IMG/VR virus record: IMGVR_UViG_2778261085_000007
Location: 1-9,274 of that record
Strand: one strand, 5' to 3'
Source of the DNA: a virus
Taxonomy: Duplodnaviria > Heunggongvirae > Uroviricota > Caudoviricetes
Length of the DNA: 9,274 nucleotides
Part shown: positions 148-3,045 of the stretch, piece after piece
How the letters are laid out: the number at the start of each line of letters is the position of its first letter
Numbering within the stretch: the stretch's first letter is position 1
Notes under the pieces: model-generated
The model's input: only the letters and a program-made list of their open reading frames with translations
What the model was told of the DNA's origin: nothing
Database searches by the model: none
Translations under genes and position numbers: made by a program

Positions 148-174
148 TGAATGACAGGTGTTCTCATTTGTACG

Positions 175-181
175 GGTCCTT
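175..181 (+). other. cosQ-like element (GGGTCCT) about 22 bp upstream of cosN
   Basis: Segment tacGGGTCCTtccgg at 172-185 matches the conserved motif near the lambda right end at the equivalent distance from cosN (from memory of lambda). Confidence 0.5.
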
Positions 182-202
182 CCGGAGAGGGGGATAACCA
201 CG

Positions 203-214
203 GGGCGGCAGCGG
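203..214 (+). other. cosN, predicted terminase nicking site / 12-nt cohesive end (gggcggcagcgg)
   Basis: acg|gggcggcagcgg|cgcggattttcgctatttatgaaaat aligns with lambda acg|GGGCGGCGACCT|CGCGGGTTTTCGCTATTTATGAAAAT; lies 188 bp upstream of the nu1 ATG, as in lambda. Exact nick positions are inferred by homology only. Confidence 0.65.
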
Positions 215-390
215 CGCGGATTTTCGCTATTTATGAAAATTTTTCGGGGAAAAGTGTGTCGGTACTTCTCGTGTGTAACTCATTGTTTTTTCATCAATCA
301 CATCCGTAAAAGGTCCGACATGAAAGTGCCCGAAAAAGACGTTTTTGAGCACTTCCATGTCGGACCCTGCATTTGATATGGAAATGTTTT
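215..390 (+). promoter_or_regulatory. cosB, terminase small-subunit binding region with three R-like elements
   Basis: Inverted repeat ggtccgacatg (312-322) / catgtcggacc (356-366), plus a related same-orientation copy gtgtcggtac (256-265). Spacing from cosN (+53, +109, +153) matches lambda R3, R2, R1. An A/T-rich T6-containing spacer at 280-300 sits where lambda has the IHF site I1. Confidence 0.55.
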
Positions 391-939
391 ATGAAGGTTA
401 ATAAAAAGAAGCTCGCGGAAATTTTCAACGTGGATCCACGAACGATTGAACGCTGGCAGTCTCAGGGGCTCTCTTGTGTCTCTGGTGGTAGTAAGGGGGT
501 TGAATCTGTATTTGATACCGCCATGGCAATTCAGTGGTATGCGCAGCGCGAAGCCGATATTGAAAACGAAAAACTCCGCAAAGAGACCGAGGATTTGCGT
601 GCGGCTGCGGAATCAGATTTACAACCCGGCACCATTGACTATGAGCGCTACCGACTCACAAAAGCACAGGCTGATGCACAGGAACTGAAAAATGCCCGCG
701 AAGAAGGGCTGGTACTGGAAACGGAATTGTTTACCTTCATTCTGCAACGTGTGGCACAGGAGATTTCGGGGATACTTGTACGTGTGCCGCTGACATTACA
801 GCGTAAATATCCGGATATTTCACCGTCACACCTTGATGTGGTGAAAACTGAAATCGCAAAAGCCTCCAACGTTGCAGCTAAAGCTGGTGAGAACGTAGGC
901 GGGTGGATTGATGATTTCAGACGCACAGAAGGCAGCTAA
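391..939 (+). CDS. nu1: Terminase small subunit (gpNu1-like), 182 aa
   Basis: [27 protein letters not shown]... aligns with lambda gpNu1 (MEVNKKQLADIFGASIRTIQNWQEQGM...) over its whole length, including the N-terminal winged-HTH. ATG at 391 chosen over the ORF-track TTG at 373 because it matches the lambda N-terminus. Confidence 0.92.
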
Positions 940-2827
940 TGCAGCCGGTGCGATAGCAACAGGGCTTGTATCTCTCAATATTCCGGTACCACTGACGACA
1001 GTTCAGTGGGCTGATAAGCATTATTATCTGCCAAAAGAGTCTTCATATACTCCCGGGCAATGGGAAACACTGCCGTTTCAGGTTGCCATCATGAACAGCA
1101 TGGGGAATGACCGGATCCGCACCGTTAATCTGATTAAATCGGCGCGTGTTGGTTACACCAAAATGCTGTTGGGGGTGGAGGCTTATTTTATTGAACACAA
1201 ATCCCGTAACAGCCTGCTTTTTCAGCCGACAGATTCTGCGGCAGAAGATTTTATGAAATCCCATGTCGAACCAACGATAAGAGACGTTCCTGTATTACTG
1301 GAGCTGGCTCCGTGGTTTGGCAGAAAACATCGGGACAACACGCTTACCCTGAAACGTTTCTCCTCCGGTGTGGGATTCTGGTGTCTGGGCGGAGCTGCTG
1401 CCAAAAACTACCGTGAAAAATCTGTGGATGTGGTCTGCTATGACGAACTCTCCTCGTTTGAACCGGATGTGGAAAAAGAAGGCTCACCAACCCTGCTTGG
1501 CGATAAGCGTATCGAAGGTTCGGTATGGCCTAAATCCATACGCGGCTCAACGCCCAAAATTAAAGGATTTTGCCAGATTGAAAAAGCCGCGAACGAATCT
1601 GCACATTTTATGCGGTTTTATGTGCCATGCCCTCATTGTGGTGAAGCCCAGTATCTGAAGTTTGGCGATGATGCGACAACCTTTGGCCTGAAATGGGAGA
1701 AGGGCAAGCCGGAGACGGTGTATTACCTGTGTGAACATAATGGCTGTGTGATCCGTCAGTCGGAACTTGACCAGACCGACGGGCGGTGGATTTGTGACAA
1801 TACCGGGATGTGGACGCGTGACGGTCTGACATTTTACAGCGCCGGTGATGAGGAAATCCCGCCACCGCGCTCAATCTCGTACCACATCTGGACGGCATAC
1901 AGCCCGTTCACCACCTGGGTACAGATTGTTTATGACTGGCTTGATGCACTGAAGGATCCGAATGGCGTCAAGACGTTCATTAACACCACGCTGGGGGAGC
2001 CTTATGAAGAGGCTGTGGCAGAAAAACTGAGCTTTGAGTTGTTGCTGGAAAAAGTCTGCCACTATGATGCGCAGGTTCCCCTGCGGGTGGTTTACCTGAC
2101 CGCAGGGATCGACTCTCAGAAAAACCGTTATGAGATTTATGTCTGGGGCTGGGCTCCTGGCGAAGAAGCTTTTCTGATTGACAAGCAGATCATCATGGGG
2201 AGACCGGAAGATGAGGACACCCTTAAACGCGTTGATGCCGTGATCCGGAAAAAATACCGTCATGCAGATGGCACTGAAATTTCCATTTCCCGCGTCTGCT
2301 GGGATACCGGTGGTATTGACCAGGACATTGTGTATCAGCGATCCAGAAAACACGGCACTTTTTTTGTGCTCCCCATCAAAGGGGCGTCGGTGTACGGCAA
2401 GCCGGTGATCACCATGCCAAAAAAGCGAAACCAGCGTGGTGTGTTTTTGTGTGAGGTGGGTTCCGATACCGTCAAGGAAATGCTGTATGCGCGTTTTGCC
2501 CTGCCGGTGGTATCTGCCAGTGAAGTCGCACCGTATACCTTCCGTTTTCCGGATAACCCTGACATTTTTTCTGATGTTGAAGCTAAACAACTCGTGGCAG
2601 AAGAGCTGGTTGAAAAAGTTGTGAACGGGCGGGTGAAACTCCAGTGGGATGCCAGAAAACGGCGTAATGAAGCCCTGGACTGTCTGGTGTATGCCTATGC
2701 AGCGCTGCGCATTTCCGTTCAGCGGTGGCAACTGGATCTGGATGCACTGGCCCGCGCCAGAAGAGATGAACAGGACGACGATGAAATGACTATTGAAGAA
2801 ATCGCGGCTGCTCTGAGTGGAGGATAA
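911..2827 (+). CDS. A: Terminase large subunit (gpA-like), 638 aa
   Basis: Full-length alignment with lambda gpA; Walker A segment KSARVGYTK (nt 1136-1162) at the same residue positions as lambda KSARVGYSK; conserved CPHCGE and [13 protein letters not shown] segments. Start overlaps the nu1 3' end as in lambda. ATG 911 preferred over TTG 908. Confidence 0.95.
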
Positions 2828-2853
2828 GTGATGATTTATACGCATGAAATGCT

Positions 2854-3045
2854 ATGCGATGCGATGCCCGCCGGGCGTTACATGAACTGATGATCGGACG
2901 TGCTGTGGTTTCCGTCAGCAAGGACGGGCGTCAGGTTCAGTATTCGCGGGCGACAATTGGTGAACTGCGTCAGTATATTGAAGAGCTGGAAAGTGCGCTG
3001 GGTGTATCCGGACGGCGTCGTGGCCCGGCAGGAGTGTGGCTGTGA
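2854..3045 (+). CDS. W: Head-tail joining / head completion protein (gpW-like), 63 aa as written
   Basis: ...ARRALHELMIGRAVVSVSKDGRQVQYSRATIGELRQYIEELESALGVSGRRRGPAGVWL aligns with lambda gpW (...[59 protein letters not shown]). The ATG at 2854 has no Shine-Dalgarno; an SD-linked ATG at 2831 is out of frame (see findings). Confidence 0.75.
   Translation: MRCDARRALHELMIGRAVVSVSKDGRQVQYSRATIGELRQYIEELESALGVSGRRRGPAGVWL

Follow-up and report, generated by a model that had tools for sequence, protein, structure and literature searches.

The sequence analysed here, referred to as the window, is a 9,274-bp virus record from IMG/VR, a linear fragment of a prophage-derived contig with an estimated completeness of 20%. 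Over its 9.3 kb the window carries head genes from the left arm of a lambda-like phage. On the plus strand, the small terminase gene (TerS, gp1/Nu1; positions 391–939) matches the Pfam family Phage_Nu1 with E = 2e-83, and the overlapping TerL gene (gp2/gpA; 908–2827, plus strand) contains the Pfam domains GpA_ATPase and GpA_nuclease; both terminase genes are open and full-length. The predicted cos site occupies the 220 bp that precede the TerS gene. In a prophage of E. coli strain C5 the site is situated between the lysis and terminase genes, and RefSeq annotates the homologous stretch there as intergenic; for this reason, and because the stretch is covered by conserved non-coding subsites, the open reading frames over positions 151–376 were rejected as genes. 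A cos site of a phage-inducible chromosomal island was also considered and rejected, given the full terminase–portal–capsid block downstream and the phage-type R boxes.

The packaging-termination signal cosQ is found as GGGTCCT at positions 174–180 on the plus strand, identical at all seven bases to cosQ of lambda, phage 21, Gifsy-1 and all aligned relatives. The homologous place in phage 21 is covered by the 'R4' of the old annotation in GenBank entry M81255, and a conserved 7-bp cosQ upstream of cosN is one of the hallmarks by which lambda-like cos sites are recognized (Feiss et al. 2015). The nicking site cosN (201–216, with no strand assigned) aligns base for base with bp 1–12 in the records of phage 21 and lambda. 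With the nick positions placed by homology, GGGCGGCAGCGG at 203–214 is predicted to form the 12-nt 5' cohesive end, with CG flanking it on each side. The window has the features of cosN named by Feiss et al. (2015), namely significant identity to lambda, conservation of the left half and the flanking CG. In comparison to the end shared by lambda and phage 21, GGGCGGCGACCT, the window 12-mer is identical at 8 of 12 positions; bp 1–6 match throughout (6/6), and the differences fall at bp 8, 9, 11 and 12. A literature search on GGGCGGCGACCT returned single-molecule papers using lambda DNA and nothing else. The distance from cosQ to the predicted top-strand nick is 22 bp in the window versus 23 bp in lambda and phage 21, in which the spacer is 1 bp longer and unrelated in sequence. 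The 22-bp spacing is present in at least 55 related loci, where cosN has CCACG or TCACG as its left flank, and the 23-bp spacing in lambda, phage 21 and most others; both are common among relatives.

Downstream of cosN, a spacer on the plus strand (215–251) contains an I2-like A/T tract (234–248), and M81255 annotates I2 at the homologous place. Positions 215–249 are identical to lambda bp 13–47 at 31 of 35 bases, and bp 13–49 show a pairwise diversity of 0.08 among 39 distinct sites of the phage 21 type. As the stretch between cosN and R3 is free of insertions and deletions, R3 falls at bp 50–65, as it does in lambda and phage 21; the distance between cosN and R3 is critical (PMC9026076). The predicted R3, the critical TerS-binding box, is AAGTGTGTCGGTACTT at 252–267 on the plus strand and matches the phage 21 R3 (AATCGTGTCGGTACTT) at 14 of 16 positions. 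It is followed by the IHF site I1 on the minus strand (276–288; AAACAATGAGTTA), which has one mismatch to the IHF consensus WATCAANNNNTTR and lies exactly at the place homologous to the annotated I1 of phage 21, bp 74–86. The predicted TerS-binding box R2, AAGGTCCGACATGAAA, is on the minus strand at 310–325, inverted with respect to R3 and R1, and is identical to phage 21 R2 at all 16 positions; a 1-bp insertion between I1 and R2, common to other prophages of the 21 type, displaces it. R1, predicted to be an accessory TerS-binding box, is TTCCATGTCGGACCCTG at 353–369 on the plus strand, with 14 of 17 positions identical to phage 21 R1. The stretch thus has the make-up of a complex cosB: three R boxes, the middle one (R2) inverted, and an IHF site separating R3 from R2.

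The core ATGTCGGACC has exactly two copies in the 9.3-kb window, at 357–366 on the plus strand and at 312–321 on the minus strand, and these sit within an inverted repeat of 25 nt with 88% complementarity. The third element, the R3 core GTGTCGGTAC at 256–265, has 7 of 10 positions in common with ATGTCGGACC, the common part being TGTCGG. When up to two mismatches were allowed, ATGTCGGACC was not enriched in the window (8 occurrences found, 8.45 expected from shuffled sequence), and the case for functional boxes therefore rests on the exact inverted pair, the homology to phage 21 and the conservation footprint. The footprint was calculated from the 39 distinct sites of the 21 type. Pairwise diversity amounts to 0.07 for R3, 0.115 for R2 and 0.139 for R1, compared with 0.25–0.27 for the spacers between the boxes, and the conserved islands correspond to the R boxes, the I1 core, cosQ and cosN's left half. 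The order of conservation, R3 before R2 before R1, fits the published view of R3 as critical and R1 as accessory (PMC4669245, PMC9026076).

A first-pass annotation of the window, made from the sequence alone, had described a lambda-type cos architecture at 172–390, and cosQ, cosN and the series R3–I1–R2–R1 are all present there. It had placed three R-like elements at lambda-like spacing and orientation with the middle one inverted, which agrees with the boxes at 252–267 (plus), 310–325 (minus) and 353–369 (plus) apart from an R1 coordinate that was off by about 1 nt. Its statement that cosQ, cosN and the first ~35 bp of cosB are close to lambda applies well to cosQ (7/7) and to positions 215–249; for cosN it needs qualification, since 8 of 12 bases agree and the right half differs at four. 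Similarly, the core that it assigned to all three repeats is exact in R1 and R2 and approximate overall, given the partial match in R3. The core was correctly described as unlike that of lambda, whose R boxes have TTTCC where the window has TGTCGG.

For comparison with phage 21 we used GenBank entries M81255, X02501 and OL657228; two of the phage 21 records annotate cosN, R3, I1, R2, R1 and the IHF sites. Phage 21 has the same order of elements as the window (cosQ–cosN–I2–R3–I1–inverted R2–R1) and the same distance between cosN and R3. Its R boxes and TerS helix match those of the window, whereas its cosN differs at the four positions given above. Lambda also has the same architecture, spacing and orientation, and is identical to the window in cosQ and the cosN left half, and differs in the R-box core. 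Judged by sequence, the apparently different repeat core ATGTCGGACC is the R box of phage 21. Lambda and phage 21 discriminate against each other's DNA by more than 1000-fold (PMC4669245). Genetics has traced the discrimination to R3 bp 56 and 59 and TerS residues 20 and 24 (PMC4669245), and roles for these base pairs and for TerS residues 20 and 24 are described in PMC4669245 and PMC9026076. At bp 56 and 59 the window has G and G, as does phage 21, versus T and C in lambda; at residues 20 and 24 both the window and phage 21 have E and S, versus Q and E in lambda.

The TerS protein shares 94% identity with phage 21 gp1 and 53% with lambda Nu1, and is of the 21 type over its whole length. Its ten-residue recognition helix is identical to that of 21 gp1; the helix of lambda, RTIQNWQEQG, is different, which bears out by protein comparison what the first-pass annotation had noticed. 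The DNA-binding domain matches the chain in PDB entry 7LWR, the sequence of which corresponds to residues 1–54 of 21 gp1, at 49 of 54 positions; a literature search for the code 7LWR found no paper. TerL is 64% identical to lambda gpA and 81% identical overall to 21 gp2. The identity to 21 gp2 is unevenly distributed, with 90–99% over the first 240 amino acids and 66–80% beyond, in the nuclease and C-terminal part, so that the window TerL (908–2827) is mosaic relative to phage 21. In lambda, the N-terminus of TerL binds TerS. The 21-type C-terminal part of TerS is matched by a TerL N-terminus (residues 1–240) close to that of 21 gp2, so that by sequence the two subunits belong to one holoenzyme type.

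When 50,697 phage records were searched sensitively at the DNA level with the cos region of the window, the best phage matches were phage 21 and 21-like phages, at about 80% identity from cosN to the start of TerS; the lambda match was limited to the cosN-proximal 90 bp. The first-pass annotation had proposed a packaging specificity distinct from that of lambda, citing lambda versus phage 21 as an analogy. The R boxes and the helix are indeed not those of lambda; the predicted specificity is, however, phage 21's own type, and is neither merely analogous to it nor new. Among 5,426 complete E. coli genomes, 23 match at least 80% of the region, 21 of them at 95–97% identity and two at 82–85%, and the matching genomes are mostly bovine. 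In the two of these genomes that were examined the terminase annotations are intact.

Around 240 lambda-type cos loci were collected from two pattern scans of IMG/VR together with records from E. coli genomes and phage collections. In every one of these with a readable TerS start, the TerS helix and the R3 core are paired in the same manner: the helix found in the window occurs with R3 cores of the TGTCGGTAC type (in one locus AGTCGGTAC), RTIQNWQEQG with TTTCCGTTC, and the Gifsy-like RTITAWQSQG with AGATCCGTTC. A further pattern scan with ACGGGGCGGNNNNNNCGCRNNTTTTC across genome contigs totalling 596 Gb gave 14 real cos sites among the 120 matches listed, most of the others being chance matches in unrelated phyla; the pattern is too loose for a collection of that size and yields no usable taxonomic distribution.

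Several of the loci have features of their own. In two prophage contigs from IMG/VR (L014 and L060) the TerS protein is chimeric. The N-terminal ~65 residues are of the 21 type, including the helix, and R boxes of the 21 type are found upstream; the C-terminal ~115 residues are near-identical to lambda Nu1, and a lambda-type TerL then follows. These proteins are natural counterparts of the hybrid lambda–21 terminases made in the laboratory. A 13-kb viral contig (L073) has two facing cos sites about 900 bp apart, at 9628–9653 on the plus strand and 10573–10598 on the minus strand. Both have CAGACG as the cosN right half, one with R boxes of the 21 type and the other with the AGATCC type, and the arrangement could reflect two adjacent prophages or a misassembly. 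In a contig assigned to the cyanobacterium Raphidiopsis brookii D9 (L319, ACYB01000015.1), a cos site at about 2426–2451 is identical to lambda over the ~100 bp read, including a lambda-type R3, and most likely represents contamination with lambda or a cosmid vector. The TerS gene is interrupted early by a frameshift in L098 and by a premature stop in L191; the cos sites of both are intact, and they are likely to be decaying prophages.

Overall, we are confident that the region at 172–390 is where a lambda-like E. coli prophage has its cos site, and that this site carries the packaging specificity of phage 21. The R boxes, the specificity positions and both terminase subunits are all of the 21 type, and the packaging specificity is therefore predicted to be that of phage 21, a non-lambda specificity that is already known. 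We infer that TerS would bind the boxes, that the nicks would fall at the homologous positions and that the terminase of phage 21 would cross-package this DNA. In the mechanism that we envisage, the winged helix-turn-helix domains of TerS dimers would contact R3 and the inverted R2, with a bend induced by IHF at I1 between the two boxes, and R1 would act as an accessory site for TerS. The recognition helix, being the same as that of 21 gp1, would read the 21-type R box. TerS anchored in this way would position TerL to make staggered nicks at cosN, generating 12-nt 5' overhangs with the predicted sequence GGGCGGCAGCGG. The cosQ element would then give the signal for the terminal cut with which the packaging of each chromosome ends.

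The state of the prophage raises the question of whether the site is still in use. The gene for the head–tail adaptor W, immediately downstream of TerL, has its frame broken at window positions 2832–2890 by three tandem ATGCG units, of which one is extra. About 19 codons on, the frame meets a stop, and gpW-like sequence goes on in another frame. With W frameshifted in this copy, the cos site may not be in use in this isolate, and the completion of virions may be impossible although cos and the terminase are intact. The broken adaptor gene, and the fact that the record is an incomplete fragment, could conceivably indicate that the cos site is an unused relic of a defective prophage. We regard this as improbable, since every cos subsite is intact and canonically spaced, both terminase genes are open over their full length, and 21 complete E. 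coli genomes hold copies of the region that are 95–97% identical.

A site with the specificity of phage 21 is also to be weighed against a third packaging specificity, distinct from those of both lambda and phage 21, which would be the strongest version of what the first-pass annotation suggested. Four substitutions in TerS relative to 21 gp1 are located in or near the wing (S28P, V30A, G32K and V37I, with the window residue first and the phage 21 residue last). R3 differs from that of phage 21 at bp 52–53 (GT in the window, TC in phage 21), on the side of the proposed contact between the wing and the minor groove (PMC9026076), and R1 differs at 3 of 17 positions. On the other hand, TerS residues 1–27, the recognition helix among them, agree with phage 21 except for K7R, and K35, a proposed wing contact, is conserved. 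The entire R2 and R3 from about bp 53 to bp 69 are likewise identical to phage 21, the discriminating bp 56 and 59 included, and the 21-type sub-variants of both wing and R3 5' flank show free recombination among relatives. A third specificity appears very unlikely in light of these observations. There is a small chance that the differences in the wing, at R3 bp 52–53 and at the three R1 positions bring about a quantitative shift in affinity. The wing substitutions, the cosQ–cosN spacer and the extra base between I1 and R2 offer no positive indication that the specificity is new.

The right half of cosN also departs from phage 21. Among the 39 distinct sites of the 21 type, the left half GGGCGG shows a diversity of 0.00, and the right half (bp 7–12) a diversity of 0.46, which makes it the most variable block of the cos region. 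The nearest known end is that of the Salmonella phage Gifsy-1, GGGCGGCAGCGT, which is one base off that of the window, at bp 12; the predicted window end accordingly corresponds to the Gifsy-1 end plus T12G, and its right half is a Gifsy-1-like natural variant. The resemblance does not extend to cosB, as Gifsy-1 has R boxes of the AGATCC type and a different TerS helix. Differences at bp 7–12 are common in lambda-like phages and have been described at positions 9 and 12 for N15 and phiD326 and at 8, 9 and 11 for Gifsy-1 (PMC4669245). In the related loci the right halves found include CGACCT, AAGGCG, CAGCGG, CAGACG, CAGGCG, GAGCGT and several singletons, at least 12 different 6-mers altogether, with the counts applying to the matches listed and the frequencies biased by the search patterns used. 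The same 6-mers are seen with cosB of the lambda, 21 and Gifsy types and with various left flanks, and divergent right halves are also present in deposited phage genomes (AAGGCG in PhiR46_1, CGTCCG in mEp237).

A variant cohesive end might require a co-adapted TerL nuclease, which would amount to a cosN specificity atop that of cosB. Four of the six right-half bases in the window differ from lambda and phage 21, and the nuclease part of TerL is just 66–80% identical to 21 gp2. However, the TerL type of the window (99–100% identical) is found with CAGCGG, AAGGCG and GAGCGT, and lambda-type TerL with CGACCT, AAGGCG, CAACCT and CGACCG. The occurrence of one TerL type with several right halves argues against a co-adapted nuclease, which we consider highly improbable, and TerL–cosN co-adaptation is rejected. 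Genetic data on lambda point the same way: lambda terminase favours neither lambda cosN nor that of N15, and cosN shows functional asymmetry, with G2C causing a tenfold cost in yield and the symmetric change C11G being without phenotype (PMC4669245). Positions 7–12 of cosN have been described as free of selection, with changes tolerated (Feiss et al. 2015, PMC4669245). The enzyme tolerates changes at bp 7–12, probably because bottom-strand nicking depends more on anchoring at cosB than on local sequence.

In some pairs of loci the 35-bp left flanks are identical and the 200-bp right flanks 98–99% identical, and yet 4–5 of the 6 positions of bp 7–12 differ. Chromosomes with mismatched overhangs give both allelic types (Feiss et al., PMC4669245), in effect putting crossovers at the nicks; cutting from a mixed concatemer would produce such overhangs, and pairs with near-identical flanks that differ at bp 7–12 may for this reason be a natural outcome of cos biology. 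It is conceivable, though we think it rather unlikely, that bp 7–12 constitute a free-standing hypervariable 'cohesive-end cassette', the diversity of which is made and shuffled by the cos mechanism itself. Mixed concatemers would give rise to cut chromosomes with mismatched overhangs, and their resolution would put the crossovers precisely where the two nicks fall. Selection might keep such cassettes varied, in that unlike sticky ends would reduce productive end-joining between lambdoid prophages sharing one E. coli cell.

The site adds no new specificity, as the discrimination between lambda and phage 21 has already been dissected genetically and structurally. It appears instead as a natural variant in which a cohesive end resembling that of Gifsy-1 and a 22-bp spacing between cosQ and cosN come together with the cosB and terminase of phage 21. 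By prediction, packaging systems based on phage 21 should handle DNA of the window. Only the collection of right-half variants, which reassort freely, is mildly new, and it quantifies the published view of an unconstrained cosN right half. The sequence GGGCGGCGACCT should not be assumed by annotators for the end of every lambda-like phage.
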